Shown: positions 14,728 to 48,122 of the stretch, piece by piece | How positions within the stretch are numbered: the first letter of the stretch is position 1 | How the letters are laid out: each line of letters opens with the position of its first letter | From: Amphiscolops sp. MND2022 | Taxonomy: Eukaryota | Assembly: GCA_964187785.1 (NCBI GenBank) | Contig: OZ076409.1 | Location: 54,438,001 to 54,502,000 of the forward strand | Length of the DNA: 64,000 nt | Reading direction: 5' to 3' | Program-made: the position numbers and the translations under genes | Notes under the pieces: model-generated | Databases searched by the model: none | Told to the model about the DNA's origin: nothing | The model's input: only the letters and a program-made list of their open reading frames with translations

Positions 14728-14928
14728 GGAATAAGATCTAAAGTCAAAAAAGGAATAAGATCCAAAGGGAACAAGATCTGAAATTTCAGGACGAGTATAA
14801 AATCTGATGGGAATAAGATCTAAAGTAAAAATGGGATTAAGATCCAAATTGAATAAGATCTAAACTTTCAGGACGGGAATAAGATCTAAAGGGAATAAGA
14901 TCTAAAATCACTAAATTTTAGATCTTAT
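14728..14928. repeat. Array of GGAATAAGATC(T/C)AAA motifs (second copy ~18610-18811)
   Basis: About nine irregularly spaced units, followed by one inverted unit TTTAGATCTTATT. Confidence 0.8.
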
Positions 14929-16938: not shown

Positions 16939-17570
16939 CCCTAGTTGAAAAAAGTACAAAACTTTCAAGAATCTTGCAAGACAATGCATTTTTCTGGCAG
17001 GTTTCTTGCCAGATTCTTGCAAGATATACCTCATATTGCAAGATATACGTCATCTTGCAAGATTCTTACTAGATAAAACTTTAGCTTGCAAGATTCTTGC
17101 AAGACAAACACTTCTTTTGCAAGAATCTTGCAAGATATGCCATTTCTAGATTGTGTTCAGCATGTTCCAAAAAGTCCTCGTAGCAAGCTTCAGCCTCGTA
17201 CAAACAAGCAGGTGCACAAAAAAGCTTCATTCACAATAATACATCAAATGAATGAGCACAAAAACCATGATGGATGTCTCTCGAAGTCCAATCTACAAAT
17301 CGACCTACAAATGAAAAAAGGACCTCGAAAAGAGACATTTGATTGGTTTAGATCTTATTCCGTTAGATTTTATTCCCCCTCTCCGGGAAAAGCCCTTTTT
17401 CTATCATTGTATCCGGCACTATTGAGCCCAGACATAGTCTCGACTATGGGAATAGTACCGGAACAGTTATTCTGACCATAACCCAATGCTCATGGGCATA
17501 ATTGATACAAAATACACTTAAATGTGATAGGAAATACAAGCAACTAGATTTCCCTACTCAAATTCAAAAT
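16939..17570. mobile_element. Truncated copy of the TCTTGCAAGA MITE (right end deleted)
   Basis: Left TIR and subterminal repeats are present; the right TIR is removed by the deletion in duplication copy 2. Confidence 0.8.
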
Positions 17571-27400: not shown

Positions 27401-30400
27401 TTTCCGATCACAAAAGTTACTTCTTCATGTTCTTGCACTCTCAAGTAGGCAACCATTAAAACTGCTTCCGACAAAGCATCTGACAAGATATTTAGATCAA
27501 CTTTGTTCATACCTCACTCAAAACATGCTCTCCCAAGGACAATTTAATTCACATGAATCATCTCTGATGCCCATTTTTTGAAGTCAAGTCGATCCTCTTC
27601 GTTCCATTTTGTATCCCACGACTGTCTGTTCTCGTTCCATTTTGATTTCAGTGGCAGTCGCATTCTGATGGTGAATGAAGACACTATTCCCAGAGGGCCG
27701 AATACAGCTAAAACATGTGATAAAACCGCTCTCTGCGTAATCTTCATCGGTGACTCTTTTTGCGTGCCTCTACTGACTTCCAGGCTGTCTACGTCATCAG
27801 TCCATTGCAGTTCCAATATTGATGGTGAAGTTGATTTGGCTTCGAAAGTGTAACTCGAGGACAGTGACTTGTCTGCTGGGTCCACAGTCGTCATAGTCTT
27901 CTCGCAGTTGCTAATTAATTTTGTTAACTGAAAACTTCCATTGGGCAGCACCGCTCGCAACGATTTGTCTATGTCAATTGCCTGCTCGGCACTGGTAACC
28001 AGACTTGTCAGAATCATCCATGTAGAAGTTTTGCGTTAATAATTCAGCAATTTGTGGAGACTTTTGTGCGTTAACTTTTGCGACATGTTGCAGAGCATAG
28101 TTAGCACAAGTAGACGAACTTTTTGCTCCAAAGATGTGTCTTCCATACTCATACAGTTTAACAAGGTTGTCTTAATACAGAACTTGGATTGTCTCGCGAA
28201 AGGAATCGTGACACTTTACAATCTTCTGGAGGTACTGTTGGAACATTGGCTCAAGGTCTGCGGTAATGGCGATCTCTTGTTCTCTAAACCTGAAGATTAT
28301 TCCAAGCACATTCTGCAATAAGACATTTACCTTGACGGAGTCTCTATAGAGCTTCTTCAACTCCGGTTTTGCATGTCTATACTAAGCCAAGGATTTCATC
28401 TGACTCAATGAAGAAGAGTAATTACTCGGCAGGAAGGGGTCATTTCTTTCCCAGAAAAGCCCAACTTCGCATATTTCCCTATCAATTTTTGTAGTTTGCT
28501 CCTGCAACTGCAAAGCTTTCTCATCTTCCGTAAACCTTTCAGACATATTGCAGCCAGATGCATATGATTCAATGTCCAACTAAGTTTTCATCTGTTCTGC
28601 CAGCGCGTCATCTTCAGAAGCTGTTACGCAAGATGCAGTCTCATGCACAGCTTCTTGTTTAGGAAGTGGTCCGCGGAGGGTCCATCCAAGTCCGTTTTCA
28701 CTGTCCACGGCTCGTCATTCGTGCAGCTTTAACATTCTTGGGTCCGATGTATATGGTAGCAGTTTTGTCCCAATATAATTTTTAAATCTTTGAGCTTCAA
28801 AGTTCCTTTGTCTAGTATCGACAAATGAGGATAGGTATGTTTGAGTTTTCGGTAGTTGTAGATCTTTCTTCAGGCGTCTGTGTTTGGATGAAGGTAGACA
28901 GTCAGGTGGTGAGTATCGCTCTTTGTCTTGCCACGGATTCCCACGGTGAATCATTCGCATTTCACATCATTTGTCCCATGTATTCCAGCCACACTTAAAT
29001 CATTTTCTTCACCTTGAATTTTTACCTTGTCAGCCAGAGTCGCACAACGCCAAGGTTGATTCTTGATTCTTTCCAATTTGGATGAAGTCAGGAATAACTG
29101 GCATCATTCCACGGCTCTCCAGTGAACAAAATGCTGAATTCAACTCTGCTTTCTGTTTTGCGTTTTCCGCTACACTTTATTCCCGCCGTCCATTTGCCTC
29201 GCGATGTAGCAATTGATGGTGCCGCCTGCTGCAACCTTGGACCCCACACGCTTGATTTGTGCAATTTTTCATCACCTGCTTCCCAGCCAAACAACCAAAG
29301 CAGAAATACAACTCTTTGGCCTTCTCATTCCGGGCTTGACATATCATCTTTAACAACTTCTCGCATTTCCAAACAGGATCTTCCAAGGAAGTTAATGCAT
29401 CCTGATATCGGCAGAATCTATTGCCTTTACAATCCATCCATTCTAGTTGTTACTTGGCTTTCAAAAGCGCAATATTCGCGGCGATGAGTTACGCCCATGT
29501 GGTCAGTAGGTTCTGTCGGTTTGGCAGAAAGCCTGCAAGATTATCATTCGTCACGTTTTCTTTGCGCAGCTCAGCATGTACAACATCCACTTTTGTCTCA
29601 AAGTTTTGAATTGCTTTCATGTTGTTCTCCGATTGTGGCTCGTCCATAAAACTCTTCAAATAGTTGTCAATTGTTTTTGTAATCGATTCGTTTAGGATCA
29701 GCCATTTTCGAAGTAGCCACAGAACGCAGAATACACTAACTCAGAGAGTCCAAACTTTCCACTGCGAATACGATTCCAAAGAAGCAGATGAAGTAGCCCA
29801 AAACCCCTGAGCACACTATATACCCAAGAGCCCAGTATGTCCACTTCGTATACAAACTTCCAGTGTCTGCAGGAGTAGCCCAAGCACCAGAAAACACTGT
29901 ACGCCCAGGAACGCCCAGTTGAGACCACTTTGAGCACACACAGTTTTGTATAATTCACCAACAGTAGTTAAACAACGGTGGTTCACTGTACACGTTCGCT
30001 TGTTCGAATGTGCGTTTCTGACTGTCTACCAGTTAGATGATCATCCAGTTGTCCACCGAATTGATGATATCCGTCCAATTGATAATGTCCATCCGGCGGG
30101 CCAAATGTAACGGCTGCTTGAACCCTTTACTTGACCAAACTTTACTCCGTCCTGAATTCGGTGCTCCGTACTGCGGATCGTTACCAACACTGCTTGCTTC
30201 CTGGATATAAAGGACTGTATCTTGACTTAGTGGGACCAATGATCTCGAATTGCACTTCTTCTTCGTTTCTTAACATGTCCAACTCTCCACAAGTTGAGAG
30301 TAACTAACTTAGTCGCCCTTAGTCTTTTGCGAAATGTCAAAAAGAGGTGAAGATATTAAATGAGAATGAGAATTTATGTGGTCTTAAGACCCCACTTGAC

Positions 30401-30990
30401 AATAGCTATTCAGTCGTTAAAATCTCTATCTAGTATTGGTGTATATCTGGCGTACAATTCCACAGTAAATAAAGAGCAAATATAAGTAAGTTTAAATAAA
30501 TGACATTTAAGTGTAATATGAAATTATTGGTATGTAAACAAAGTATGTGGTGGAATTGGCATGATTTTAAAGAGGGTTGGAAAGTATGTTTACGCAGTGT
30601 AAATATCCCCAATACCAATAGCATTACATTTTCTTCAAGATCATATGAAAAAATCAGATAAAAATTTATGTATCAAAAATGGGTTTTCTTGGGGTCCGAC
30701 CAATGTCTCTTTGGGCGTTAATTTCTCTGGACCCAGGAGAGATACGAGTTCGGGTGCTTCGAGTAAGAAGTTGTGTTAACACCTCTAATGTGTACGTGCC
30801 AAGTTTGGTAGTGATTGGATAAGCGCTTCTCCAAAAAAGGGGAGTGGTCCTTTTTTACATGTAGCCGTTTTGCTAAACGTGGTAATTTTCAACTGAAATC
30901 TGGACTACGTTTCAGAGTGTTTCGAGTTTTAAAATTCACGAGTCACGTTCAAATTTCACTCTGCCGTCTTGCAATTGACTGGCGCGAACA
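24413..30990 (-). mobile_element. Decayed BEL/Pao LTR retrotransposon with three LTR copies
   Basis: LTRs begin TGTAACGG at 24413 (partial), 25025 (to 25851) and 30106 (to 30990). TSD ATCCG at 24408-24412 and 30991-30995. BEL-type coding remnants lie between them. Confidence 0.9.
25797..29700 (-). pseudogene. BEL/Pao gag-pol remnant with many stops and frameshifts
   Basis: Gag CFGC and CGVQGCSRRHHQLLH; RT-region FRFREQEIAITADLEPMFQQ; Pao TQRAVLSHVLAVFGPLG; integrase PHLGGIWKRLVRSYK and VEQTLNARP; C-terminal DGSVR...KRSVIKL. Confidence 0.88.
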
Positions 30991-31899
30991 ATCCGGATGT
31001 TTACTTGTTGAGTCGCAAATAAAGGCTTGCTTGCAAGTAGAAATTCCAAGGCAGCAGGGCCAATTTGTATGCCCTAGCTTTCCAAATTTCAGATTGGGGT
31101 TCGAATTCCGCCCGATATAAAAGATGTTTGGTGTTTCTAAAAGTAGTAAAAATGTAAAGAGTTTAGAGAACTTTCAAAAACCAATTGCAAATCTTGAAAT
31201 ACATTTGCTATTATTTGTAAACTGTGTGCTCTCCGAAGTGTCTGCATACTATACCACTGGGGTCTGGAATCATTCTATTGTAATGCTCAATACCACATAG
31301 CTTCAATCAAATAAGGTGTAAAAAATCAAACCAACCTAACCCTGGGCGCAAACAACACTTTCCCCATAGGCTTGAAAAACTTCCAAAGGATGAAAACAGG
31401 CATATTCCATCTAGTTCATTCACACAGCTTCTTTTTCTTTCAAAAACTTAACCACACTGTGTCTACTGAACCCATTTTTGCCGTCATTTTTGGAGCAGAT
31501 CTCCAGTGACGAAACATCGTGGATCTACTAACCCAACTAGTACTTCTCCGAACCAACTGCGAAGACAGCGTATGTTCGTGAGTGAAGCCGAAAAAAACTG
31601 ATGTTACTCCGAAACCTATATTGCATGCCTAAACTTCGTGCTACATTTTGTAGATAGCAAAAATTTGACGCGCGCAAAGACAATTTAAGTCAAAAATGAA
31701 ATGAAACAGAGAAAAAGTGAAACTGCTTACAATCAGAAATTTACTTTTCTGTTCCGCTACTCGGAAAAATTTTGTTTCCGCTTCCTAATTATGTTAAGAA
31801 GTCAACTATATCAGTATCGTTAGTTTTAATTTAGGTACGGAATTGATCGGAAAAGTCCTTACCTTTTAAAAAATTGTTTCACAAAGCCGAAAAAATTTC

Positions 31900-32359: not shown

Positions 32360-32921
32360 TGTAAGGGCTAACGTCCGAATGTTCTCTCAGATCACAAGCG
32401 GACCTCGAGTCCCTCTTTGTCATTCTTGTATTCATGTTCTCCCATGCGCTTCTGGTTCCATCCTCATTTAAGGACGTACCCGGCTCAACGCCATGTTGAC
32501 CCAAAGGCAAATTTTCTACCATATTTTGTATTTCCGGGATAACTCTCTCACTTATAGCAGAACTAATGGCCCTGGTAATCTGTGATTGCATTAGGTCCAT
32601 CATAGCCTCCATCTCGCGCGACATCCTAGCGTTCATTTCCACAGATAGTGTATTGATAGACTCTATCAGTCTACTTTCCCCAACTGGTTCATTTCTACCA
32701 TCGATGTTTCTGATCTCATTTTCTTGAGATGAATTTTCTCTGTTCGGAAAGGACTGAAAGTCTCGTTGTCCCTCAGGGACGTTAATCAAGCTATCAAGTT
32801 CTCTTTCTATAGAGTTGGAACTTCTGCCACCTAGCATTACGTCCATGTTGCCGTAGTCTGACAACATATCTAATTCTCTAGATTTTCTAGACTTGGCCTT
32901 TTGTCTCCTCGTAGAAGGCAT
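32360..32921 (-). other. Intact copy of the Gag N-terminal coding segment in the 3' LTR
   Basis: ORF 32283-32969: MPSTRRQKAK...SDVSPY runs to the LTR end and then into flanking DNA. Confidence 0.8.
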
Positions 32922-33987
32922 TGAAAATGTTATTCCAGGAGAAAACATTTGAATTGTTCCTGGGGACAAATACTTCTATTTTCAGATTAATCAAGATGAG
33001 CGTAGTGTATCAGGTAGCTGCAAAATTATGATTAACCTTTGTCAGGCCGACTTGGGTATATATACCCCAGAGGGCATGACAGGCAAAATTGTAACGGTCA
33101 TGATACTAAAAATAGCAACGCAAACTAAAAATAGATACGTCAGCACTATAAATAGTAACATGACATCATTTTAGACTTGTGCGGGCGGCTAGATCAAAGG
33201 GCCCGACAAGTCTCATCCGCATATGGGTCAAATTGTTTACAAGTATAATTCATGCAAGCAACAGTTTACATGCACAACAATTCATGAAGGCCCTGTTCGG
33301 CGTATGGCCGTTGGGGTTTTCTAATTCAGTCCCATCATAATATGAGAGAGCAACAATTACATGTTAACAGTGTATATGTCTGTTTATTGCATGGGGTGGG
33401 TTATTTGCATCTTCAAGCCACTAATTAACTGGAATACCAATTTCATATGGCAAGTATACAGCATTTGAGTATTCATCGTGCTAACCGGCCATGACAGGCC
33501 TTATTTACTGCATAGCACCAAGACAATTAATACAGTGAATTGGGACAGCTATGTCACATAGCCGCTTTCGTCCTTTTTGTAATTACTGAATACCAATCAA
33601 GTATAGCATTAGAGCACAATAAGGCCGGCAAAGTTAGTTGGCCGCCTTGGTCCATTCTAAATAGTCATTAGCACAGTTACGTAATAAGTAATAAGATGGC
33701 TATTACAAACTGCACTCTGATTGGCCAATTGACCGTAGACGGCATAGCTAGCCATACTGAGCAGGCAAACATTTGAACACGTTTCCTTTCTGCCTGTCAG
33801 TATGGCTTGCTGTCAAATGTATTTTACATAAGAAATAACAATATAATCCATCAATTAATATTACATGTTCAAAATAATACTGAATGTTTGAAAGTTTTGG
33901 TTTATAATGGGAGCGTCCCAGGTAGGGCGATTGGCTTCGTATGGTCAATCGTGTAAATGTTGCCATCGCAGGCGGCAGCCTGCGACA
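32360..33987 (-). repeat. 3' LTR of the Gypsy element (1628 bp)
   Basis: Starts TGTAAGGG and ends GCGACA on +. Matches 46498-48122 apart from about 10 substitutions and two small indels counted by eye. Confidence 0.96.
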
Positions 33988-34732
33988 CTCCCCCTGGTAG
34001 CAATAAGAAAGTGCCCACTTGCATTCCTTCCAAAAAGGCTCTTTTGCGCGCTTCTAGTTGATCTGCCGATTCTCCCAAAATGGCCGTCTTGCGCAAGTAG
34101 TCTGTGACAGCTTCACTCTGGATTTGTAATGTAGATTTCCCACATATCACGCAATCTGAGTAATTTGCCATAGGATTGTTCGTCTCAATCTCCATTCCTT
34201 GGAAATGGTTTGCAACTGCGTCCAATGACTGCTGGGTAATCTCGTCCGCTGAGTAGGTGTCGTAAGTTGGTCCTTTCTCTTCTGGTGGGGGCGACATGGG
34301 AGTGTCCACCATGGGAATGATTTCCCTACACAGCTTGATAGGGTGATTATTGCGCACTCGGTCGTCTCGCCGTATTGGGCCGTTTCCTTTTCCTAATGAG
34401 AAAAAGGATTGGTCAAGAGTAGGCCTTGTTGCAAAACTCGCCCCGGAGGTCCCGTACCTTGGTGGGTTATATCGGGGGGCCTCGTTTCTAATTTTCAGCG
34501 ATGTGGATGGACCAGGCACTGGGATGGGTGATGATAATTCCATCTCGACACACTGGGCCATCATCATGATTTCGTCATCTATTTCTTCTTCGTCCTCCGA
34601 TGACAGTTGAAGGTCTAGCACCGAAGTCATGCTTAGGTCACACATTCCCTCCTCTTCGTCGCTGGACAGGCAGATGATATCTATGCCCTCGGGCGCTGCG
34701 CCGATGAAGTCTTCAGGAAATCGTTGAGCCAT
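33902..34732 (-). CDS. Accessory ORF3, 276 aa, acidic N-terminus with SIM-like motifs and a CxxC; unknown function
   Basis: ATG-initiated open frame inside the element. Motifs IDIICLSSDEEE, VLDLQLSSEDEEE and CVICGK. Reads through the PPT and ends 86 nt inside the 3' LTR. Confidence 0.75.
   Translation of the reverse strand: MAQRFPEDFIGAAPEGIDIICLSSDEEEGMCDLSMTSVLDLQLSSEDEEEIDDEIMMMAQCVEMELSSPIPVPGPSTSLKIRNEAPRYNPPRYGTSGASFATRPTLDQSFFSLGKGNGPIRRDDRVRNNHPIKLCREIIPMVDTPMSPPPEEKGPTYDTYSADEITQQSLDAVANHFQGMEIETNNPMANYSDCVICGKSTLQIQSEAVTDYLRKTAILGESADQLEARKRAFLEGMQVGTFLLLPGGVSQAAACDGNIYTIDHTKPIALPGTLPL
33988..33995 (-). other. Polypurine tract (AGGGGGAG)
   Basis: Purine run directly upstream of the TG of the 3' LTR on the minus strand. 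Confidence 0.88.
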
Positions 34733-35079
34733 AAATCTATCTTTTATTATCTTTTTTGCAATTTTGAATGCGATAGGACAATTTTAATTCGGTTTGAGTA
34801 GAGCAACTGTTTAGTTTGAAAGTTAGGAAGCAAATGGCGATTTTCATTTTTCAATTTCTCGATGGTTTTGCTTCACATTTTCCCGGTCTTTCGTTTCCCG
34901 CATCATGTTTCGCTGACTAAACTTTCCAAGATGTTCTTTGATATAGACCGCCTTCTGCTTTGTTGACCGACGATCAACTTCAGCTTGCCTAAGTCGGCAA
35001 AGAACCTTCAAGGACTTCGTCTAGTGTTTATCTCCACTTGATATCCACTTGAGAATTTCAAGAGAGGGTGATGAAGTTT

Positions 35080-35155
35080 TAAGGCCACGCGCGGCGCATC
35101 GCCGCGACAGCCAATGGGAATCGCCCACTCAGTCCGCTTTTCAATATGGCGGAAT
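35080..35155. promoter_or_regulatory. Putative internal bidirectional promoter core
   Basis: CpG-rich patch (GGCCACGCGCGGCGCATCGCCGCG), CCAAT box and YY1-like AATATGGCGG between the divergent 5' ends of ORF3 and the antisense gene. Confidence 0.5.
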
Positions 35156-35892
35156 TAAAAAGAATAATCCAAATAAGGAAATAATAAAATAACTAAAAAT
35201 AATGAAATAACTAAGGTAATAAAATAATGAAAATGCATGTTTCGAAATATAACTAATGTGGATTTCTCTGGCAGATTCCATCCACAAAATAATTCTCATA
35301 ATTGTAAAAATATTTGACATCAAATCCAGTTTGCCACGAACTCCAACTTTGCTACTGCAATCGCAATCATTTTCAATTCTTCAATTGTCAATTCGTTACA
35401 TTACTTACATTCGTATTTATCCATTGTTTATTTAGTACAGAGTCATTGTTTGAATTTTATACTGCCTCTCATCCCCTCATTCAGGATCGTTGTCCAGCTG
35501 CCGGACTCGTCCAGATCTTCCTTTTCGTCGTCATCAAGACCTACTCCTCCCTCTTCACTGCCAAAGATTTGCCCAATCAGGACATTCGGTTCCTCAGGAT
35601 CTTCTAGCCTGGTTTGCAGTACAATTTCAATACGTCAAAGATCTTCACGTCATACTCCTTCAGCTCCCAATTGGCCAACAACTGCAGGTAAGCTATCTGG
35701 TCTTTTAATTTTTGAACGGAAATAAGCTTGATCAAGGCTTTTCATCTCGTTCATGCACTTCCTGTCCATTTTCGTCGATGCAATTTAAACGTCATGTTTT
35801 ATTCCTTTTCACTTCCGGAAGATTTTACTGCGGTTTGGATGGACTCATATTCAGGAAGTTGTCCGCATGTATTTATCTCTTTTCATTTAGGT

Positions 35893-38800
35893 ATGACAAC
35901 AGAGGAAAATTCGCCAGAACCCACTACCGCTCCAGTTGTCGGGAACGATGAAACTGAGACTCCAGAGACCGTTGAGTTACCAGGCCTTATCAGGCCTTCT
36001 CCCCAAGTGTCCGAAGGCAGCAGGTCTACTGAAGAAAGTGTGACCGCATTTATTGAAAGGACCCTTGACGTAATGTCTCAACCCGAGGCTGAGATCATAG
36101 GTCCACTGCAAAGTCAGCCAGGTGTTACTGCCCGGATGGTCACTGTCAGCATCCCCTTTCTAAAAGCCTCTGTGTCGGAGCCCATTGCTGTGAGGAATGA
36201 TCTGACAAACATTGAGACAGGGGCCGGCAGTAACAAAGAAACTGAATCTACAGAGGAAGTACCAGGACTATATGGCGACACCACAGATGTGGAAGATTTT
36301 ATGGACAGCTCTGGCGTTGCCGTTTACCCACCAGTCGCTCCGAATGTCATTTTGGATTCTACTACTTTCCCTGATCTAGAAGAGGGATTCCATGAAGACT
36401 CAGGGCACAGTGATTCCGAACAGGAGCAGTATCGAGCCAAATTAGACGGCGCCGATAGGCAACTTTCCGCAAAGGGCAAACTAGTCATCAAGAAGTATTT
36501 TCAGGACACTCGCAACATTGAACTACCCAGAGATCAACCAGTCATCGCTCTTACCGCAGATGAGATGCACGCTGTCCTGAGGACCGTTTCCGACGAATCT
36601 GTACTTTCGTCCTACCACATGATGAAGTCTTTGTTGCTTCATGCTACTCGGGGAGCTCCCCAGGATAAGAAAAGGCCTATGCCCAAACGGTGTGCAACTC
36701 CTGCACGGCCGTTCACTGACAGTTCAGGAGATGAGAGTAAATTTGAGGGACACGTCTCAGATGGTTACACTAGTGGAGCCTTCAATACAGATGAAGATCC
36801 TTACCAGTTGGGGTCCAGTTCTGGCACAGATTGCCTGAGTGAATCTGATCCTTTGTCTTCGACTCCAAGGGCCCGGAAAGTCCACGCCACCATCACGTCC
36901 CGGGTAGATACTGCAACGCCAAACTCTGGAAGCGGGTATAGCAGTGCTGATTACCAGCCACTCTCGTCGCTTGGACGGATACCCGAGCAAGAAACTCAGG
37001 ACAGGAGCCCAGCCCGGAAAAGACGCAAGTTGCTCAGCAAACCTGGGAAGGTGATGAAAGATGCCTATTTTAAGGGCATCCAATGGACCCGTATCTTCGT
37101 ATCTGGCCCCGTCGATCCCGTCCACAATAAATTCAAGTTTTACTGCATGCTATGTAAAACTAATGTCTCTATTTTCTCAAAGGGTGCCAGGGAGATCCTA
37201 AGACACTATAAGACAGAAGGACATCTCCGGAAAGATCAAAAGTGGAGGTTCACCCATCTGCAAGAGGCTGATGAAGTTACTGGGGTTGTTACGCACTATG
37301 TCAGAGGGAAAGATGGTTACGTCCTTACTCCAATTGAGCTGGAGCGAGAAAAGCCATTATTCATTGATGCCCCCCTGATCGAGGCAGGTGATCGTTTCCC
37401 GTTCTACGATGACTACATGGCTAGTATTGGAGGACTAACCAGCCCTGATGACCTTCGGACCAGTACCTTAATCTCATTGATTGGGACTTTCGTACCGCAA
37501 GATGGCAATATTTCCCTGTTGCGAAACTTATGGACTCGAGTGGGCATGTTCACCAACCACCAAGCCTTGTTTTCCTCATTCGATTGGGGACCTGCAACTC
37601 TTACTGTAAGTAGAATCTTCATCTATAGAATTAATTGTAAGACCCAATGTGGCCTCCGGCTAAGACGTCCCTTTTGTACATTTGTGTTTTGTTTTAGAAC
37701 GTCTTCCATCACGTTTTCATGAGAGGTCTCGCAGATATCTCCAGTCACATCATGGCTACTGAGATGTACTCGATTGAGTTCACGACAGAGGGCATCCACC
37801 GGTGCATGTCTGTCCGTTTCTGGAGAGATGACTCACTCGTTCGGGTTGAACTTCATCGGCACAATCAAGCTGACCCTTATCCGTGCTGTTACTTAACAGC
37901 TATCTCATGTCTGCTGTTAGTTGTGTCCTCAAAGCCCAATCTTGTCAGTGTTTCCGGATGTTCTTCCATGGTCTTCAGAGCTTTAGAGACATGTGGGCTG
38001 TTCAACCGCGGGATTCAGTACCCGTTCCGCTTCGAGGTTTTCTCCCTTCCCGAGTTAATGCAGCCCACAGCACTACTGCAGACTGGTTACATCTTTGGTC
38101 GAATTGACATTTTCTCCCAACTGAAGATCCTAGTTGTCTACCTCCGAGGCGGGCTCAGTCAATCTTGGGCTCTACAGAGTCCTGAACTTTGCAAGGTGAT
38201 TTATTTTCCAACATAATTTTTCATTAGACGTTGACCTGGTGACCTGGTGTCGATACTCTTTCCTGGTCACTTTCATAATAGTAAAAGCAGTTCTCCTTAT
38301 TTGATTGTGTTCCGTAGGCCATAACAGCATGTGATGTGGAACTCAAGAAGATCCCTGCCGTTTGTTCCGAGCTCGTTAGAAGCTGGAAAGCTATCAAGGA
38401 CTACCTGACCAGTATAGCCCCAACCCAGAAGATGCAAGGAGCTAAGAATAAGGTAGCTATTAGCCGTTTTCTAGTTGATCAGCATTGGTAACTACACCAC
38501 ACTGTAATCTTGGAAGATGTAATCCTTATGAGGTAAATTTCCTTTTAAGCCTCAGAGCCTGGAATGGGAGATTATTCTAGATGACTTCTTCACCATCAAG
38601 CTTGAATTCCTCTCCTTGCTGGTCCGCGATTGTTAGTTTTTCTTCATTTTTATTTGAACCGCCAGCGTAGTTGACCTACCGGCTCATGTGCCGATCACGG
38701 CCTTAAGCATAACCACAATTGTGATGAGGTGGGGGATTTGGTGGATTCTGGTGATTTGCATCTGACTCTAAATTTGTTTAGATGCCAAGTGTTTCGAACG

Positions 38801-39938
38801 AAGTCTCTCTGGACGGCGGGATGCAACCCTCTTCGTTTATGGCCAATATTGCAGATTCATCCGCCGGTTGTGCCACCGCGCCATCTTGCCCAAATGTATC
38901 CCAAGCGATACAGACTGGAATGGTCTCTTGCAATTGTGCCCTGACGATCTGAGACAATTATCAATCCGTGATTTCTTGCATCGCCTCAAACTCACATGTG
39001 ACCTTGATCTGGTTTGTCAAGCAAAACTGGAGAAATCTAGGGGATCAAATCTTGTACCCGCTAATCAGGCTGAGTTGGTCTCCAAGGAGAAGGAGAATTT
39101 TGGGACTGAAGCCCGGGCATATATAGTCACTCTGTTGGAGTCTTTGCTTCGGGATATTCACTTCACCGCGAATATTGTCCGCGGTATGGGTAGCTTCGAT
39201 CCCCATGTGTTATTGACATTACCTCTTGAGCAAGTATCCTTTTGCTTCAACGCTTTGTATGACAGCTTTCGACTTCGCGGCTGGGTGGACGAATCCTCCC
39301 GCAATGACTGTCGGGATGAATATTTCGAGTTTCTGGACTACTTTCGCAAATGTTACCCTTCCATTAAGTCTTCCCCAGGGACTATTGCTCACGTGTTACA
39401 TCTCCTTATTCCAATTACTGAGTTCCGAAGTCGTGCTAGGCTTTTTCGCTTGTTTCAGTTGTGCTGCCTTTGCATAACTGAGGGACATCAAACCCTTCCT
39501 GCCGTTAAATTCCAGGATGTCGATACCTCCAATTCCCGATGCCGTCTTTCTGCGGTAATACTGCCCGCCCAATCCTACTTGACAAATTGCCCAAGTGCGA
39601 TTTCCGTTTGTACCACTGAAGCCGCTCTAGCTAACTACAAGGAATTGGAGGGACAATTTAGTTCCGGACAGCTTGCTGGAGACCCTTGGGTTCACGTCGA
39701 CGTCTTTGGGCAGGCGAATTTCCTGAAGACCCTTACTGCTGCCTTCAAGAATTTGAAAGGAACTCCCGTGGTTGGCGTTAGCACGGCTTCACGTTCGTCC
39801 TCTGTCTCAACTTCTGCTGGGCGAAAGATAAATTGGGCTGCTGGGCAAGCTCAAAAATTGGCCTATTTTGGCGACATTCCTGCTAGTGAGATCTCAAAGA
39901 CAGTCCAAGAATTGCGAGAAGGAAGCTCTAAAAGTTAA
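35893..39938 (+). CDS. Antisense spliced cargo gene: ~1192-1194-aa protein with BED-type zinc finger and degenerate hAT-transposase-like body
   Basis: Coding exons 35893-37605, 37698-38195, 38318-38452, 38550 (or 38556)-38631 and 38782-39938. All introns are GT-AG with compatible phases (0,0,0,1) and give one stop-free frame. Probable 5' UTR intron 35688-35890. C-x2-C-x16-H-x5-H finger (FYCMLC...RHYKTEGH), basic NLS PARKRRK, AATAAA at 40085-40090. hAT assignment is from motif resemblance only. Confidence 0.8.
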
Positions 39939-40115
39939 ATGTACATAGTGTACATTCGCCATTTTAGACTTTTCTATTTGTAAATTTCAGTTCTGTTTCT
40001 CGTTTTAGTATTTATATAGTTAGTTTCTTCTGAGTCAAAGAAGTCAGAGTAGTCCCAGTAAAAACATGCCATCTCGGGCAGTAAAATAAATAGGGACATA
40101 ATTTAACGTTTCTGA

Positions 40116-43100
40116 CTAGTATCTGTATTCATCAGTATAGTTGGGGTTGGGGTTAGGTCGAAGGTTGTATTTCCCCCCTCTAGGGCTAGAGTTTTCATCA
40201 GTTTTTTCATTTGCTTTTTCATTCGATATTCCGGGCACGGTAATATCATCCCCCTCGTTAGGAGAGTTTTCCTCGCTTTCTAATTCATTTGTGACGTCAT
40301 TCACGTTCTTTTCTGAACTAGGTGGTGTATTGCCACCATTGTGGCTATTTCGGCTAGTGGCCGTTCTCGGCCTTTCTATTTCGCTGCTTTGTTCGCCTCG
40401 CGCAGCATTCTCGCTAACGTCATGTTCATCATGCATTATAAGTGCGTCTCGGCTAGCGGCCGTACTCGGTCCCGCTTCATTTTCATTCTTTTTGGTTCGT
40501 TCATTCAGTTCGATGACGTCATTTGCGTCTCGTGTCATTGTGCCGTCTCGGCTGGTGGCCGTCCTCGGCCTTACCGCGTTGTCATCAGCGTTGTCATAAA
40601 TGACGTAATCACTAGTCGTGACACCAGCATCGCTGTCTGGTGCTTGCGATTCTTCGTCCGTATTATCGTCTCGTCTCGGCTCAAAGAGATGGTAGTCAAA
40701 ATCTGCTTCCCATGAGATGGTGTATAAATCATCTTGTGGTATGATTATTTCATCATCTGGTTGCAATTTCTCTTTGGCATATTTGTCCTCTAAAGTCGTA
40801 TTAGGAACAAACTTTTTCAGGCGAATTCGGTGTAATATCTGTGTTTTATTCGTATTTAACCGGCGGACAATGTAATTGTCGTTAGGTAATACCTTTTCAA
40901 TTCGATAAGGACCGATCCAGCGATATTCTCTGAATGGTATTTTTGATCCTTGATTGTCCGCTTTAGGTTGTAGGATAAAGCAAAAATCTTGGTCACTGAG
41001 AGGAGCTGCTTTGGCCTTTCGGTCATAGTACTCCTTATATTTCAAGTAGGACTGCATAATGTTATGTTTCGTTTTGTCAATGAGAACTTTTGTTCTCTGT
41101 TGTAATTCTTCAGCAAATTCAGTAGTCGGGAGGAAATCCTTATTAGGATTATTTCCAAGTTTATGGTCAAGAACATTATAGGGAATTCTTCCGTGAAAGA
41201 CCTTGCTCGGTTCACAACCGATGCTGGAATGATAAGTTGTGTTATAATTGAGCACTGCTAGTGGCAAATATTTGTGCCATTGACGGCGATATTCCCCTGA
41301 GGCCATTTTCAAATTTGTTTTCAATGAGGCGTGAGTTCTCTCGAGTTTGCCAATTGTTTGTGGATGTTTAGTCGTCGCACATTTTAGGGTTATTCCTAAT
41401 ACTTGCGTTATCTCTGCAATAATTTTTGATGTAAAAGCGGTTCCTTTGTCGGTGATGATCGTAGTTGGCAAATATGAGTGCTTTGTCATGATGTCTATTA
41501 AGACCTTTGCCGTGTTAGAGGCTGTTGCCTCAACTAACGGGTAGGCAAACAGATATCTTGAGAAGACATCTATTGCTGTCATCACTGTTTGGTAACCTCC
41601 GCTTGTTGGCAAGTTTGGGAGTAAATCGATTTGCATTGCGTCCTCTGGTCCAAGGTCCCATTCTGGCAAGTTAAGCAATTCGGGCGTTATCGTGTTGTTT
41701 GGGACCCGTTTATCTTTTGCGCAAGTTACACATCCTTCTACCCACTTTTTAACGTGTTTTGCTATACCGGGGTAGTAGTATTTCTGTCGTATTTCTTGTA
41801 ACATCTTCGATATACCCGGGTGTTTGTGCGCCGTTCCGTGTAAGGCCTGTAACAATTCTGTCAAAAGGTGTTTTGGTAAGAGAACTTGGTGATACTTGAC
41901 TTGTCCAGTTTCATCATAATATTGTCGTGTGACTATTTCGTCTTTAAGGACTATTCGGTCCAAGTTGTAAAGGTAGTGTTTGTATCGGATATCTTGCTGG
42001 AGTAGTTCTTCAGAATAGTCTTCGTTCTGAATTTTGGCTTTGAGTTGGCGCAGTATAGGGTCGTTGGATTGTTCAAGTAAAATTTGATTCGTTCTGCGCA
42101 TTTTTTGGGTAAAGTTTGTAATCTCATCTACTATGTTTTCAGATATTGCGTCAATTTGAATAAAGCCTTCTTGGTCGATTGGGTTGGTTCGGTTTTGTTT
42201 TTTACGCTCCCAAATTTGAGCTTCTGTCTCATCATCTTGCTCCGTGAAGAAAACTTGTTCCTCTTCAGCAACGCCTGCCGATTGGACATTGACCTCGATG
42301 GGCTTAGTCTCTATGTCTTCGCGGATTTTAAGGACTAGTTTCTCTCTGGGGTCCATTTCCATGCGAGATAAGTAGTCGGCGGCTGTGTTGTTTTTCCCTG
42401 GTATATGTGCTAAGACAAAATTGAATTGTATTACATAGTCACATGCATTCCAGAGTGTTGGAGGGATTATCTTCGTCTGGAAGAATCTCGTGACCGATTT
42501 GTTGTCCGTGAGGATGGTAATCGGTTTAGGGGCTCCCCAGAAAATATGTCCAAATTCTTTGAATGCGTAGTAAATCGCTAAGAATTCCTTAGCGTATATG
42601 GACATTTTGAGTTGCGATGGCGTAAACGTTTTTGAGCCATATGCAATTGGAGCGTATGATTTTTTGACAGATGAATATTTCTGGTTTGGGTCGTCCTCGG
42701 TAAGTATGGCGTAGCCGGCCGCTGTGAAACTAGCGTCAGTCATCAGGACCAGTTGCTTGTTTGGCAAAGGTTGCTTCAGGGCCAATTGGCTACATTTGTC
42801 GAGGTCCCGATTGATTTCATTGAACTGTTGTATTAGTTCTGTGGTCACCAGGACTTTTTCGTCTTTTTTGAGAAGTTGAAAGAAAGGGGCTAATTTTTCA
42901 GATAATCTTGGGATATAGTTCCTGTAATAATTTAGGAAACCAAGATATCTTTGTAGAGCCTTTTTAGATTTGGGAAATTTGGTTTTTCCTAGGAAGTTTG
43001 TTATTCGCTCCTTTTGTGGTTTGACTCCCTCCGGAGTAATTGTTCTCCCCAAGAAATCGATTTCCGTTGCCCCGAAGTGGCATTTGTGCATTGTCAGTTT

Positions 43101-45365
43101 AAGGCCAGCATGCCTAATGCACACAAAGGTTGCTTTCAAATTTTTTATGAGATGATCCGCATCATTGGCGGCTATGCCAATGTCATCGACATATTGGGCA
43201 CATTGATCAGCTTTGATAACTTTATCGAGATATTCCCTCATGAAACTTGAAAATGCTGATAATGCCCTGCTAAGGCCCTGGGCAAGTCGTCTATACGCAA
43301 AGGTGCGGCTTGCAAAGTTGAACGCAAGCATCTCAACGGACCTTTGGTCCGCCATTGGTAGGCAGTGATATGCCTGTGAGCAATCAAGTTTACAGAATAG
43401 TTTCTTTCCTGCCATATGTTGTGCAGCGTCCGTTAGGGTACTAACCGGATGATTGTTGTTGATATAGTCATCCGAAATGAGGTTGTTAATTTTCCTCAGG
43501 TCGACTAGTAGTCTTAGCTTCCCATTCGGCTTTTTCTGTGCGAATATGGGACTGGCGTATTTCGAAAATGGCAGTGTAGTTATTATGCCATATTTGTGTA
43601 ACAGGGCCAGTTCGACAAGTATGTCCTCTTTTAAATTGACTGGAGTTGGGAGACTTTGGCTGTAAGCAGGCGAATCGTCCTTAGGAGTCAGTTTGACCGT
43701 GAATTCTTCATTCATTCCGATGTCAAATCTGTGTCGTGCAAATATGTCATGGTATTCGACTAAAAGCGATTCGATCTTTTTGATTTCATGTTGTTGCAGC
43801 ATGGAGTCTTTCCAGTCGAAATTGCCAAGGAATTTGCGGCGTGACTCATCATCATTCTGTGGATTCAATTGTTCAGCTTCTTGGAGGTTTCGTAATTCTT
43901 GAAGGATTCGTCGTTGGATGGGAGTATGGGAATCTTCGTCCCCTGGGTTTTCTGGCGTAGGAAACCAGTACTGTTCATATTGGTCATTGTTCCGATTAGC
44001 CTTGAGTAGACTACTGACATAGTAGATCGCATCCTCTTCGTTTTCATTGAGGAGATGCCATGTGGACACCGGGTCAATTGGTTTGACGTGTTTCATCTGT
44101 TCCGGTGTTAGTACGGAAAAGTTTGCTATGTGTAGTCCCTTTTTAAGCTTGTACGGTTGGTCTGTAAAATTGTTGATATGAACGTTGACGTTTCCATTAG
44201 TCAATGTGACTATTGCGGCACAGAATGTGATGTCGCCTTCTTCATGGAGGAGATCACTGGGTTGCAACACCCCTGTGACCGTATTTTCATTGTAGATTTG
44301 GGATTTGATCTCTACTAAGGTACGGTCATTGGGTGGTATTGTGATATCGTCTGGGTTAAGTATTGGTTCCAGTACGTTAGAGTATTTATGGTCAGCCGTT
44401 TTGAGTTGCATCGAGAAATATGGGAAATTGAGTATGCCTTGTCGCATGTCCAGTACTGTATGATTCCTCTGGAGGAACATTAGTCCTATGATAGGGCCAG
44501 TCAGTTTTTTCATTACTATGAATATTTCATGGAATTCAATATCTCCGACTTCGAACTTGAGTTCAACAGTGCTCTTTGGGGTTTCCAATTGTCCGTTTGC
44601 GACCATAATTTGAAACGTCGGGGCAGGTCCCTCTTTGACTATGGATTGGGGCGCCAATAGGCGTATTTTCCTGAGGTCTGCTTCCGGAATTGCGCTGGAG
44701 TGAGCTCCAGTGTCTATGAGGCCGTCTATGGTTAGTTCCCCAAAGTCCATCGGGAAATATAGCATCCGTTTTTTGTATTTGAGTCCGAGGTTTGTGGATA
44801 GTGGTATGTACGCTGGTTCTCCCTCTTTAGTTACCAGGACATGTATGAAGGCTGTCTCGTCGAGGAGGCCAGGTGTGGCCTGTGTCTCTTCTGCATGTGG
44901 TTGATCTTTGATCGCATCAAAATTTGGTTCCCATTGTTCGATGAGTGCCCGGGACAGTATGGTGTCTACAATGTCAGGGTCATCCTCATCGTCTGTTGGC
45001 GGGTAGTCATCATTCCGAAATTGTAAATTGTGTTTATCATATAACTCATCATCCCAGTACGGGTCTTTGCCGTACTCGGGGTCGTAGTATTGGGGGTTGT
45101 AGTCTTCGACAGTTTGTAAGGGTCGGAATTGGGTTTCTGAGTCTTTAGTAAGGTTATTACGTCGATATAGGTATGGGTGGTCACTGTGAATAATATATTG
45201 AGTTTGAGTACAGGCTTCCACCATCTGCTGCTGCCAGACAGTCGATGGGGTCCCTGTGATGTTCTTTTGTGATTGCTTATAAGCGATGTTAGCTGGGTCA
45301 GATATGACATACTGTCGTATCGACATTTGGTCAGAGATTTGGAGTCGTGGCAAAATTAGTTTTTT
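40116..45365 (-). CDS. pol: Pol polyprotein: aspartic protease, RT, RNase H, integrase (intact, ~1745 aa)
   Basis: Protease LIDTGA; RT LLVDLRKIN, KLDCSQAY, YVDDI; RNase H LMTDAS, KEFLA, LTDNKS, ADYLSR; integrase H-H-CC (HGTAHKHPG...CVTC), QIDLL, TDKGTAF, GKLERTH; GPY/F motif WIGPYRI. No stops. Confidence 0.97.
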   Translation of the reverse strand, partial: KKLILPRLQISDQMSIRQYVISDPANIAYKQSQKNITGTPSTVWQQQMVEACTQTQYIIHSDHPYLYRRNNLTKDSETQFRPLQTVEDYNPQYYDPEYGKDPYWDDELYDKHNLQFRNDDYPPTDDEDDPDIVDTILSRALIEQWEPNFDAIKDQPHAEETQATPGLLDETAFIHVLVTKEGEPAYIPLSTNLGLKYKKRMLYFPMDFGELTIDGLIDTGAHSSAIPEADLRKIRLLAPQSIVKEGPAPTFQIMVANGQLETPKSTVELKFEVGDIEFHEIFIVMKKLTGPIIGLMFLQRNHTVLDMRQGILNFPYFSMQLKTADHKYSNVLEPILNPDDITIPPNDRTLVEIKSQIYNENTVTGVLQPSDLLHEEGDITFCAAIVTLTNGNVNVHINNFTDQPYKLKKGLHIANFSVLTPEQMKHVKPIDPVSTWHLLNENEEDAIYYVSSLLKANRNNDQYEQYWFPTPENPGDEDSHTPIQRRILQELRNLQEAEQLNPQNDDESRRKFLGNFDWKDSMLQQHEIKKIESLLVEYHDIFARHRFDIGMNEEFTVKLTPKDDSPAYSQSLPTPVNLKEDILVELALLHKYGIITTLPFSKYASPIFAQKKPNGKLRLLVDLRKINNLISDDYINNNHPVSTLTDAAQHMAGKKLFCKLDCSQAYHCLPMADQRSVEMLAFNFASRTFAYRRLAQGLSRALSAFSSFMREYLDKVIKADQCAQYVDDIGIAANDADHLIKNLKATFVCIRHAGLKLTMHKCHFGATEIDFLGRTITPEGVKPQKERITNFLGKTKFPKSKKALQRYLGFLNYYRNYIPRLSEKLAPFFQLLKKDEKVLVTTELIQQFNEINRDLDKCSQLALKQPLPNKQLVLMTDASFTAAGYAILTEDDPNQKYSSVKKSYAPIAYGSKTFTPSQLKMSIYAKEFLAIYYAFKEFGHIFWGAPKPITILTDNKSVTRFFQTKIIPPTLWNACDYVIQFNFVLAHIPGKNNTAADYLSRMEMDPREKLVLKIREDIETKPIEVNVQSAGVAEEEQVFFTEQDDETEAQIWERKKQNRTNPIDQEGFIQIDAISENIVDEITNFTQKMRRTNQILLEQSNDPILRQLKAKIQNEDYSEELLQQDIRYKHYLYNLDRIVLKDEIVTRQYYDETGQVKYHQVLLPKHLLTELLQALHGTAHKHPGISKMLQEIRQKYYYPGIAKHVKKWVEGCVTCAKDKRVPNNTITPELLNLPEWDLGPEDAMQIDLLPNLPTSGGYQTVMTAIDVFSRYLFAYPLVEATASNTAKVLIDIMTKHSYLPTTIITDKGTAFTSKIIAEITQVLGITLKCATTKHPQTIGKLERTHASLKTNLKMASGEYRRQWHKYLPLAVLNYNTTYHSSIGCEPSKVFHGRIPYNVLDHKLGNNPNKDFLPTTEFAEELQQRTKVLIDKTKHNIMQSYLKYKEYYDRKAKAAPLSDQDFCFILQPKADNQGSKIPFREYRWIGPYRIEKVLPNDNYIVRRLNTNKTQILHRIRLKKFVPNTTLEDKYAKEKLQPDDEIIIPQDDLYTISWEADFDYHLFEPRRDDNTDEESQAPDSDAGVTTSDYVIYDNADDNAVRPRTATSRDGTMTRDANDVIELNERTKKNENEAGPSTAASRDALIMHDEHDVSENAARGEQSSEIERPRTATSRNSHNGGNTPPSSEKNVNDVTNELESEENSPNEGDDITVPGISNEKANEKTDENSSPRGGKYNLRPNPNPNYTDEYRY

Positions 45366-47056
45366 GATTCAGGTTTTTTAGAATTCGATTGGCCTGATGA
45401 GGATGTTGTGGATTTTTCATTCTTGGTGCGAGTGCCTTCGTCTTCAGAGGGCTCCGTGTCTTTGGTGGAGTCCTGTCTATTTCTTTTTGGACGAAGATGG
45501 GCACCAGCGCCACGCCAACATTTCTCTGCTGGGTGATTGGTTTTACTGCAGGTGGGACATTCTGGATAAGTTTGTCGTTGAGGCTTCTTGCCGTCTTTGG
45601 CCTCTGATTCTTTCTTCTTTTTCAGTTTTGGACAATTTTTCCAGAAGTGGTCCTCTGCCTTGCAGTATGAGCATTGGTAATTTTTGTTGGTGTCGATGCC
45701 GTTAGATAGTAGATTTCGGGACTTGTTGGACGACGAAGCCATTGTAGCAATGGGTAGGTCATCAGATTCTTCTAATGCGTTTAACTCGAGTTCCCGTTCC
45801 AGATGTGCCACAATCTCCTCGTAGGTCCCGTTTTCCAGTCGAGCCATATTTACTGATCTTTTGAGTTTTGGGGGTAATTTAGCATACAAGAGGCTGTCTA
45901 TCATGCTTTTGGCGTTTTCCCCAAAGGCCTTCTCGGCACCCTGGTTGAGTTCCTCAAGAAAATCGGGTAGTTTCATCGTGTTGGGATCAAAGATGAGCCT
46001 GTGCCACTTGTGTTTAGCTGTGGCTTGAGACTCGGGTTTGACGTACTTTCTGCGGAATATGACCAATACGTCTTCTAATGTTTGACGGTTTATGGAGTTT
46101 ATATTTCGGAAAGTTTGCAGTGCTCCTTTTCTGAGCAGAGAATGAAAATGATTTATTTTCATTTGTTCTGTCATGGCAGGCTGCATCTTTATCATTGTAT
46201 GAAATAAATCTTCAAACAATTCAAATTTCTCTGTTTTGCCGTCAAATGTCATGGGGTTCGTCATGACTGGTCTAATTGTCATCGAGTGTGGTTTATTTTG
46301 GAGGTTTACCAGGACATCTGCCAATCGGTTGATAGGGTCTTGTTGCTGTTCTGCCGGAGCAGGCTCCGCTATTGGCAGAGTTGTATCCAGAGTTGTATCA
46401 TGAGTAGATTCTTGTCTTTGGAGGTCTGGCTGAGAGTGAATTCGTCCTGTGAGGAATTCAGGAATCGGCTGTTGGAGTTCGGTAGCTCCTGTCACCATGT
46501 AAGGGCTAACGTCCGAATGTTCTCTCAGATCACAAGCGGACCTCGAGTCCCTTTTGTCATTCTTGTATTCATGTTCTCCCATGCGCTTCTGGTTCCATCC
46601 TCATTTAAGGACGTACCCGGCTCAACGCCATGTTGACCCAAAGGCAAATTTTCTACCATTTTGTATTTCCGGGATAACTCTCTCACTTATAGCAGAACTA
46701 ATGGCCCTGGTAATCTGTGATTGCATTAGGTCCATCATAGCCTCCATCTCGCGCGACATCCTAGCGTTCATTTCCCCAGATAGTGTATTGATAGACTCTA
46801 TCAGTCTACTTTCCCTAACTGGTTCATTTCTACTATCGATGTTTCTGATCTCATTTTCTTGAGATGAACTTTCTCTGTTCGGAAAGGACTGAAAGTCTCG
46901 TTGTCCCTCAGGGACGTTAATCAAGCTATCAAGTTCTCTTTCTATAGAGTTGGAACTTCTGCCACCTAGCATTACGTCCATGTTGCCGTAGTCTGACAAC
47001 ATATCTAATTCTCTAGATATTCTAGACTTGGCCTTTTGTCTCCTCGTAGAAGGCAT
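45356..47056 (-). CDS. gag: Gag with two CCHC zinc knuckles; N-terminus encoded in the LTR and frameshifted in this 5' LTR copy
   Basis: ORF 45356-46582 has a capsid-like region (FDGKTEKFELFEDLF) and the knuckles CSYCKAEDHFWKNC and CPTCSKTNHPAEKC. The 3' LTR copy shows an uninterrupted frame from MPSTRRQKAK to the LTR end. The 5' LTR has 2-bp and 1-bp deletions with a stop at 46622-46624. Confidence 0.9.
45359..45365 (-). other. -1 ribosomal frameshift slippery site A-AAA-AAC at the gag/pol junction
   Basis: Minus strand reads TCA AAA AAC TAA. The X-XXY-YYZ heptamer sits just before the gag stop, and the -1 frame continues as K-L-I-L-P-R-L-Q into pol. Confidence 0.85.
46481..46497 (-). other. 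Primer-binding site (TGGTGACAGGAGCTACC)
   Basis: TGG immediately follows the terminal CA of the 5' LTR. It resembles a tRNA-Leu-type PBS (TGGTGTCAGGAG) with a mismatch; tRNA identity not verified. Confidence 0.85.
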
Positions 47057-48122
47057 TGAAAATGTTATTCCAGGAGAAAATATTTGAATTGTTCCTGGGG
47101 ACAAATACTTCTATTTTCAGATTAATCAAGATGAGCGTAGTGTATCAGGTAGCTGCAAAATTATGATTAACCTTTGTCAGGCCGACTTGGGTATATATAC
47201 CCCAGAGGGAATGACAGGCAAAATTGTAACGGTCATGATACTAAAAATAGCAACGCAAACTAAAAATAGATACGTCAGCACTATAAATAGTAACATGACA
47301 TCATTTTAGACTTGTGCGGGCGGCTAGATCAAAGGGCCCGACAAGTCTCATCCGCATATGGGTCAAATTGTTTACAAGTATAATTCATGCAAGCAACAGT
47401 TTACATGCACAACAATTCATGAAGGCCCTGTTCGGCGTATGGCCGTTGGGGTTTTCTAATTCAGTCCCATCATAATATGAGAGAGCAACAATTACATGTT
47501 AACAGTGTATATGCTTGTTTATTGCATGGGGTGGGTTATTTGCATCTTCAAGCCACTAATTAACTGGAATACCAATTTCATATGGCAAGTATACAGCATT
47601 TGAGTATTCATCGTGCTAACCGGCCATGACAGGCCTTATTTACTGCATAGCACCAAGACAATTAATACAGTGAATTGGGACAGCTATGTCACATAGCCGC
47701 TTTCGTCCTTTTTGTAATTACTGAATACCAATCAAGTATAGCATTAGAGCACAATAAGGCCGGCAAAGTTAGTTGGCCGCCTTGGTCCATTCTAAATAGT
47801 CATTAGCACAGTTACGTAATAAGTAATAAGATGGCTATTACAAACTGCACTCTGATTGGCCAATTGACCGTAGACGGCATAGCTAGCCATACTGAGCAGG
47901 CAAACATTTGAACACGTTTCCTTTCTGCCTGTCAGTATGGCTTGCTGTCAAATGTATTTTACATAAGAAATAACAATATAATCCATCAATTAATATTACA
48001 TGTTCAAAATAATACTGAATGTTTGAAAGTTTTGGTTTATAATGGGAGCGTCCCAGGTAGGGCGATTGGCTTCGTATGGTCAATCGTGTAAATGTTGCCA
48101 TCGCAGGCGTCAGCCTGCGACA
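46498..48122 (-). repeat. 5' LTR of the Gypsy element (1625 bp)
   Basis: Direct repeat of 32360-33987. Followed on the minus strand by the TGG-starting PBS and flanked by TSD AGTGA. Confidence 0.96.

Follow-up and report, generated by a model that had tools for sequence, protein, structure and literature searches.

Retroviral accessory ORFs such as nef and the sag of MMTV run over the polypurine tract (PPT) into U3 and travel with it. In LTR retrotransposons of plants and rotifers, conserved extra ORFs in both sense and antisense orientation are reported in the interval from pol to the 3' LTR; their functions are described as mostly unknown, and most of the sense ones either resemble env and have transmembrane domains or represent captured enzymes (PMC7264820, PMC5408684). 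The Gypsy element Cer1 of C. elegans encodes CERV, described as a non-env, Cys-containing, phospho-regulated RNA-export factor that is spliced to gag exons (PMC10309623), and VANC21 of the Arabidopsis element VANDAL21 is reported as a proven transposon anti-silencer that acts sequence-specifically on DNA methylation (PMC8616336). In flies, SUMO-SIM recruitment of SetDB1/Wde silences transposons, as reported in 10.1101/533091. The SUMO-interacting motif (SIM) is described as a loose motif, composed of a hydrophobic core, in which Cys counts as a core residue, and an acidic or phosphorylated stretch, in either orientation and subject to CK2 phosphorylation (PMC12751080). Herpesviral regulators also carry SIMs: a CIVI core plus two CK2 serines of HCMV IE2 are reported to serve SUMO-dependent transactivation (10.1101/655282), ICP0 and K-Rta are described as SUMO-targeted ubiquitin ligases (STUbLs) that have several SIMs plus a RING and degrade, and LANA1 and K-bZIP as repressors (PMC8430037). 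The open-access literature yielded no prior description of a SIM-bearing retrotransposon protein, of acoel Gypsy ORFs or of non-AUG retrotransposon starts, although repeat libraries or supplements may annotate them.

The locus described here lies in a 64,000-nt stretch of Amphiscolops sp. MND2022 DNA (contig OZ076409.1, positions 54,438,001 to 54,502,000), referred to as the window. Judged by its sequence, ORF3 belongs to a large acoel Gypsy lineage, in which it is conserved as an accessory gene other than an envelope. The window copy of the element is organized as follows.

32360..48122, minus strand: full-length Ty3/Gypsy LTR retrotransposon of 15.8 kb (LTR pair, ends, Pfam)
46498..48122, minus strand: 5' LTR (LTR pair comparison), its final ~560 nt carrying the start of the gag frame
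45356..46600, minus strand: gag, remainder of the frame (open frame)
40116..45368, minus strand: pol, with protease, RT, RNase H and integrase (Pfam matches)
35716..39938, plus strand: antisense spliced gene, with conserved frames at ~35837-37605, 37698-38195 and ~38782-39938
33902..34732, minus strand: ORF3, 276 aa from an AUG at 34732, within an open frame of 33902-34783 on the same strand
33988..33997, minus strand: PPT, within the ORF3 coding sequence, in codons for P-G-G-V
32360..33987, minus strand: 3' LTR, whose first 86 nt code for the end of ORF3

The element has the TG...CA LTRs, target-site duplication, primer-binding site (PBS), PPT and pol order PR-RT-RH-IN of Ty3/Gypsy elements. 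Its LTRs are 99.2% identical across 1629 columns, its ends are TG...CA, and a 5-bp target-site duplication, TCACT, flanks both. A PBS-like TGGTGACAGGAG sits 3' of the 5' LTR, within gag, and the site is also present in all eight of the other 5' halves retrieved. The gag frame opens ~560 nt inside the LTR (46498-47110, minus strand) and reads across the PBS, a layout shared by distant subfamilies; in the window copy, it is broken once, near 46620. We also observed a dUTPase-like stretch between protease and RT (~44110-44350, minus strand; pol residues 339-419), with an E value of 3.7e-4, just below the Pfam cut-off. An imperfect palindrome centred on TATATATA lies in the LTR (33040-33081), ~140 nt ahead of the gag start, and the sole AATAAA of the LTR is upstream of this palindrome.

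Elsewhere in the window, an older, decayed LTR element with Gypsy-like fragments spans 49171-56288, with 79% identical repeats at 49171-50046 and 55435-56288. Another decayed element, at 24413-30996, has repeated ends that are 80-85% identical, and we take its fragments to resemble BEL/Pao pol. A recent tandem duplication of ~4 kb (12147-20119; 99% identical) carries palindromic TCTTGCAAGA arrays and 82-nt repeats, and two near-perfect hairpins are found at 6843-6937 and 7876-7959, with arms of 47 and 41 nt.

The first-pass annotation had placed ORF3 in the env position. ORF3 does precede the 3' LTR as the last gene of the element and reads through the PPT into U3, with its final 86 nt in the LTR; it does not, however, directly follow pol, as 5.4 kb with the antisense spliced gene intervene. 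The likeness to nef and sag is positional only, with no sequence relation. We regard CERV as the closest retrotransposon parallel of ORF3. Both are non-env accessory ORFs located after pol and before the 3' LTR, lineage-restricted and with a Cys cluster, and CERV is reported to be under phosphoserine control (PMC10309623). Unlike CERV, ORF3 overlaps the PPT and U3, bears a SIM-like motif and apparently starts from a site of its own. The arrangement also differs from the plant and rotifer ORFs, since here a soluble, SIM-bearing ORF lies back-to-back with a spliced antisense gene.

A genome search with ORF3 gave 7405 first-look candidates, the best 141 of which ranged from 100% to 57% identity. 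No internal stop was found in 113 of these 141 scored matches, which, as the best-scoring rows, are a biased sample. Three distant relatives used as queries returned 147, 141 and 142 matches from other subfamilies (overlaps kept in). ORF3 is present in hundreds of copies in this genome. Some ORF3 matches are spaced by ~14 kb (C4:51533816 and C4:51547734; C5:3374023, 3388125 and 3402227), which suggests tandem arrays of elements that share LTRs.

Outside the genome, 101 unnamed proteins match ORF3, and a profile search gave 588 cluster representatives at E <= 0.001, the best 150 of which were inspected; relatives reach down to about 30% identity. For two of them, P0182 and P0244, the scored genome matches include no close copy (best 46% and 41%), suggesting that the family probably extends to other genomes. 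ORF3 matched 0 Pfam families, and PDB sequence profiles searched with its C-domain gave a best E of 0.54; neither with ORF3 nor with the C-terminal part of P0043 did the ESM Atlas return a usable match, an uninformative outcome of low recognition. In our classification, ORF3 represents a new family of proteins whose class of role is known.

Among 35 subfamily pairs, dN/dS is 0.05-0.17 in the seven with unsaturated dS; the remaining 28 are synonymously saturated at 56-80% protein identity. The ratio is far below 1 across residues 1-240, that is, outside the LTR. Where the end of ORF3 overlaps the PPT and U3, synonymous sites are partly constrained (pS 0.54 versus ~0.75), and the LTR end partly dictates codon choice around C255, although Cys, Asp and Gly codons there still vary synonymously. 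Judged by these substitution patterns, ORF3 is a real gene under purifying selection. The order integrase, antisense finger, ORF3 is kept in 43 of 45 retrieved 10-kb loci. Across the 45 loci, integrase identity ranges from 61 to 99%, whereas that of ORF3 drops to 29%, and ORF3 is only 29-40% identical in loci whose integrase holds 70-84%. Such faster divergence would be expected of a host-facing factor.

The N-terminal part of ORF3 contains three features relevant to SUMO binding.

34655..34678, minus strand: SIM1, residues 19-26 (IICL-SSDE), a hydrophobic core and two CK2-type serines (alignment)
34595..34621, minus strand: SIM2-like motif, residues 38-46, poorly conserved (alignment)
34535..34591, minus strand: acidic-hydrophobic helix, residues 48-66 (model, alignment)

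Tandem phospho-SIM-like motifs had been proposed in the first-pass annotation. Both are present, with IICLSSDEEE beginning at residue 19 and the SIM2-like VLDLQLSSEDEE at residue 38, but conservation is confined to SIM1, as the SIM2 columns are highly variable and, in 3 of 14 lineages, mostly gapped. A tandem SIM array was therefore rejected. The same annotation had made its reading depend on conservation of the ORF and the SIM cores among copies; the ORF is under selection and SIM1 and the cysteines are kept, whereas SIM2 is not.

The SIM survey sample was drawn from 239 family proteins, of which 81 were near-full-length, and reduced to 30 representatives sharing less than 60% identity with one another. 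In 20 of these 30, h-h-x-h-[DSE]3 was present, a pattern that we assume to describe a SIM, versus 4.3% in shuffles, with the qualification that the representatives share descent and are non-independent. Among controls of similar D/E/S content from the same elements, none of 34 acidic pol tails had it, and antisense N-termini had it in 1 of 30. Among genomic reads, the pattern was present in 81 of 83 belonging to 14 forward lineages (some places doubly sampled) and in 0 of 18 from one other clade. SIM1, whose columns are among the most constrained in the N-terminal part, had a class entropy of 0.14; the values for its flanks, SIM2 and the folded C-domain were 1.43, 1.05 and 0.72, respectively. 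The h-h-x-h core was class-conserved in all 14 forward lineages, with the third position variable. One protein, P0277, carries the pattern elsewhere, at residue 187. SIM1 has the features of a phospho-SIM: it lies in a disordered region (pLDDT under 50 for residues 1-47), and its hydrophobic core of four residues precedes Ser and acidic residues.

The clade that lacks SIM1 has a tree support of 99 (quick search; P0072 and P0184 left out as N-terminally truncated). In 9 of its 10 rows, two of them identical, an acid-I-x-V-h sequence occurs at the start of the acidic helix; this antiparallel form is found in none of the 14 forward lineages. A shifted L-V-x-L core is present in 6 of the 10 rows. 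It looks as if an antiparallel SIM-like motif compensates for the loss of SIM1 in this clade, as a single event and at a site with an acidic-hydrophobic character in every family. Where the hydrophobic core is gone, SSDE and the preceding Tyr persist, and in the subfamily alignment S24 is present in 20 of 20 subfamilies, E26 in 19 of 20 and a Tyr at position 21 in 15 of 20. The retention of SSDE and Tyr without the core suggests that the SIM1 site may serve another partner.

SIM1 might then be a CK2-phosphorylated acidic docking or activation motif for some other host protein, with ORF3 an acidic-activator type of factor unrelated to SUMO. The near-invariance of S24 and E26, which includes the core-less clade, and the frequent Tyr at 21 are compatible with this, as are the unconserved SIM2 and an N-terminus that is acidic throughout with scattered hydrophobics. 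However, the h-h-x-h class is kept in 14 of 14 forward lineages with the variable third position that is a SIM signature, and the antiparallel pattern is confined to the clade that lost the core; we consider a role unrelated to SUMO rather unlikely. On the conservation of its core, SIM1 is probably the site through which ORF3 docks on SUMO.

The likeness to IE2, ICP0 and K-Rta is that a parasite-encoded regulator carries a short hydrophobic core with CK2 serines and acidic residues behind it. The herpesviral proteins are, however, DNA-virus proteins and non-homologous, and ORF3 has one conserved SIM and neither a RING nor a recognisable DNA-binding domain. RING spacing was absent from ORF3, whose five conserved Cys/His residues are scattered over 120 residues with no Pfam match, so that ORF3 lacks both the tandem SIMs and the RING of an RNF4/ICP0-type SUMO-targeted ubiquitin ligase. 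With one conserved SIM and no RING, ORF3 more likely provides a single docking site than acts as a poly-SUMO decoy or STUbL. The proposal of a SUMO decoy or counter-defence factor in place of an envelope holds as regards the non-envelope nature of ORF3 and the conservation of SIM1, but loses ground, for the same reasons, as regards a poly-SUMO decoy. The host has a SUMO gene, 80-81% identical to the closest named acoel proteins, and two zf-MIZ (PIAS-type) loci. Lineage-specific proteins of divergent ubiquitin-like repeats, some of them fused to other domains, were also noticed (L109, L111, L113, L120 and L121).

Outside the SIMs, two further features were delimited.

34286..34303, minus strand: [TS]-P-x-S-P-P, residues 144-149 (subfamily alignment)
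33968..34330, minus strand: Cys/His set C135, H176, C194, C197 and C255, with a helical hairpin at 201-239 (conservation, models)

Several descriptions in the first-pass annotation were borne out. The absence of a signal peptide or transmembrane segment agrees with an acidic N-terminus and a maximal 19-residue Kyte-Doolittle mean (KD19) of 1.12, by hydropathy only; a KD19 of 1.6 was reached by only 3 of 30 representatives. The Pro-rich linker is evident at residues 67-104 (21% P versus 8% overall), and the C-terminal CxxC plus helix corresponds to CVIC at residue 194 and the hairpin, modelled at pLDDT 84-97. All 20 subfamilies have C135, C194, C197 and C255, and 18 of them have H176; together, these residues form a possible zinc site. 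The AlphaFold models are poor overall (mean pLDDT 57 and 63.5), the hairpin alone being confident and the zinc geometry unreadable. P145, S147, P148 and P149 are present in all 20 subfamilies, in what we presume to be a Pro-directed phosphorylation-site pattern. Fold searches with ORF3 returned no convincing relative (best E of 2.3 in PDB Foldseek and 1.3 among viral structures; best Z of 4.6 in VIA, generic hairpins), and no psi-K-x-E site was found in the window copy. An LxCxE motif, which we take to be the Rb-binding pattern, was considered and rejected because A, not L, stands two before the Cys.

Upstream of the ORF3 AUG, two conserved features were recognized.

34733..34765, minus strand: basic in-frame leader, (K/T)-I-A-K-K-h-h (in-frame anchor, subfamily alignment)
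34804..34809, minus strand: initiator-like CAGTY, candidate ORF3 transcription start or splice acceptor

Coding-like conservation starts 10 codons ahead of the ORF3 AUG, and 101 of 114 ORF3 frames have the leader peptide ahead of the first Met; of the 13 that lack it, several are frameshifted in the A-run or truncated. The peptide was also found in five database proteins whose annotated start lies further upstream; two of these belong to the P0182 group. The 20 subfamily representatives, which were taken from leader-anchored frames, have the leader Ile codon (34760-34762) as ATT in 16 and ATA in 4, always with A at -3 and G at +4, whereas the leader Ala uses all four codons and Lys both AAA and AAG. 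An in-frame stop lies within 20 codons upstream of the leader in 13 of the 20, no ATG occurs in the 50 nt upstream of it in any of them, and the first Met follows at a variable distance of 7, 11, 12 or 14 codons. Criteria for conserved non-AUG N-terminal extensions have been described (PMC3105428). The ORF3 leader shows a near-cognate codon, a good context, coding conservation downstream only and no upstream AUG, and is probably AUU/AUA-initiated. Frameshifting into ORF3 at a slippery site was rejected, as synonymous changes break the A-run in several subfamilies, and splicing straight onto the leader was rejected, as no conserved AG adjoins it. In 17 of 20 subfamilies, CAGTY is found at a distance of 17-48 nt upstream of the leader, against 7.8% in shuffles; we take it to resemble an invertebrate initiator, and it could alternatively be a splice acceptor. 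This conserved basic leader and the CAGTY upstream of ORF3, both recognized by alignment, are new in this analysis.

ORF3 and the antisense gene lie back-to-back, diverging across about 1 kb. The antisense gene, which comprises at least three conserved frames, has GT/AG borders at 37606, 37697 and 38196, and the phase into its last exon suggests further small exons. Its Cys/His finger presumably represents a BED-like pattern, and we read the gene as a degenerate hAT-like transposase; a PDB sequence profile search with the last antisense frame gave a best E of 0.39 and did not confirm hAT homology, and no longer relative of the finger region was found, which is weak evidence. The cassettes are exchanged among elements, the upstream antisense one freely. 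Elements with 95-99% identical integrase bear ORF3 of 56-68% identity and unalignable U3, and among 465 locus pairs with near-identical ORF3 C-halves, U3 is discordant in 48 and the upstream antisense segment differs in 304. One ORF3 type is joined to two U3 types (L045/046/050 versus L047/048/049). ORF3 and U3 mostly travel together because they overlap; the two U3 types of that one ORF3 type and the swapped antisense cassette argue against a strict lock-and-key relation with its own promoter or partner.

We tentatively favour ORF3 as a pro-expression or anti-silencing regulator that docks on SUMO-tagged nuclear proteins via one CK2-type phospho-SIM and would act as a transactivator or anti-silencer much as herpesviral IE2 does. 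In such a mechanism, a promoter inside the element, situated at CAGTY and back-to-back with the antisense gene, would presumably give a short mRNA ending in the 3' LTR. Weak AUU/AUA initiation would add the basic leader, and the downstream AUG would yield a shorter form. Phosphorylation of S23/S24 by CK2 might raise the affinity for SUMO, and the SIM would bring ORF3 to SUMO-rich chromatin, where SUMO normally recruits SetDB1-type silencing. There, the acidic helix and the Cys/His domain could recruit activators or block the silencing complex, with DNA binding perhaps contributed by the antisense finger protein. As SIM-bearing viral proteins activate, degrade or repress, the sign of the effect on element expression is one that we infer. 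ORF3 resembles VANC21 in being a transposon-encoded accessory protein, with an anti-silencing role that is only proposed for ORF3; VANC21 belongs to a plant DNA transposon, whereas ORF3 seems to have no strict pairing to one U3 type and would act through SUMO. A more elaborate and doubtful form of this proposal is a back-to-back counter-defence cassette, in which a tamed DNA-transposase finger protein and an AUU-initiated, dosage-limited, CK2-switched SUMO reader would jointly block SUMO-dependent heterochromatin on the element.

ORF3 might instead bind SUMO and act after transcription, either in a Rev/CERV-like protection or export of unspliced genomic RNA or by guiding the integration complex to SUMO-rich nuclear sites. 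Its invariant cysteines, invariant S-P-P site and basic leader would suit such a role, and so would the overlapping antisense RNA that the element presumably makes, given its antisense gene. However, Pfam, profile and fold searches gave no named relative and no sequence or fold link to CERV, and the available text of the CERV paper makes no mention of SUMO (PMC10309623). In addition, ORF3 is acidic without an Arg-rich RNA-binding stretch, and no conserved acceptor next to the leader fuses it to gag exons. A post-transcriptional role thus seems unlikely. Binding to SUMO might also restrain the element, with SUMO-dependent repressors brought to its own LTRs for copy-number control or latency in the manner of KSHV LANA1 or K-bZIP. 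The LANA1 SIM is reported to recruit SUMO-KAP1/Sin3A (PMC8430037), IE2 to auto-repress (10.1101/655282), and very high element copy numbers coexist with the host; yet the fast divergence of ORF3 and the cassette swapping fit conflict better, though not decisively, and self-restraint appears quite improbable. An envelope or fusogen, or a non-coding by-product of PPT/LTR constraint, would account for a position ahead of the 3' LTR and for an end that overlaps the PPT and U3 with partly constrained synonymous sites, but with a maximal KD19 of 1.12 and dN/dS far below 1 in residues 1-240, it is excluded as far as can be told from sequence and given next to no credence.

An anti-silencing role through SIM1 would bear on a core step of animal transposon silencing, the contact between SUMO and SIMs, which DNA viruses attack with SIM-bearing proteins. 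Proven transposon anti-silencing proteins are rare, and most come from plants. In ORF3, a short motif can be studied together with a host SUMO sequence and with many natural variants, one lineage among them having apparently swapped SIM orientation. A conserved non-AUG start in a retrotransposon accessory gene would be a second oddity. If the cassette proposal were true, a SIM-based anti-silencer would for the first time be encoded by a transposon, in convergence with the herpesviral strategy. ORF3, most of whose sampled frames are intact, may help to explain the very high copy numbers of this Gypsy lineage.
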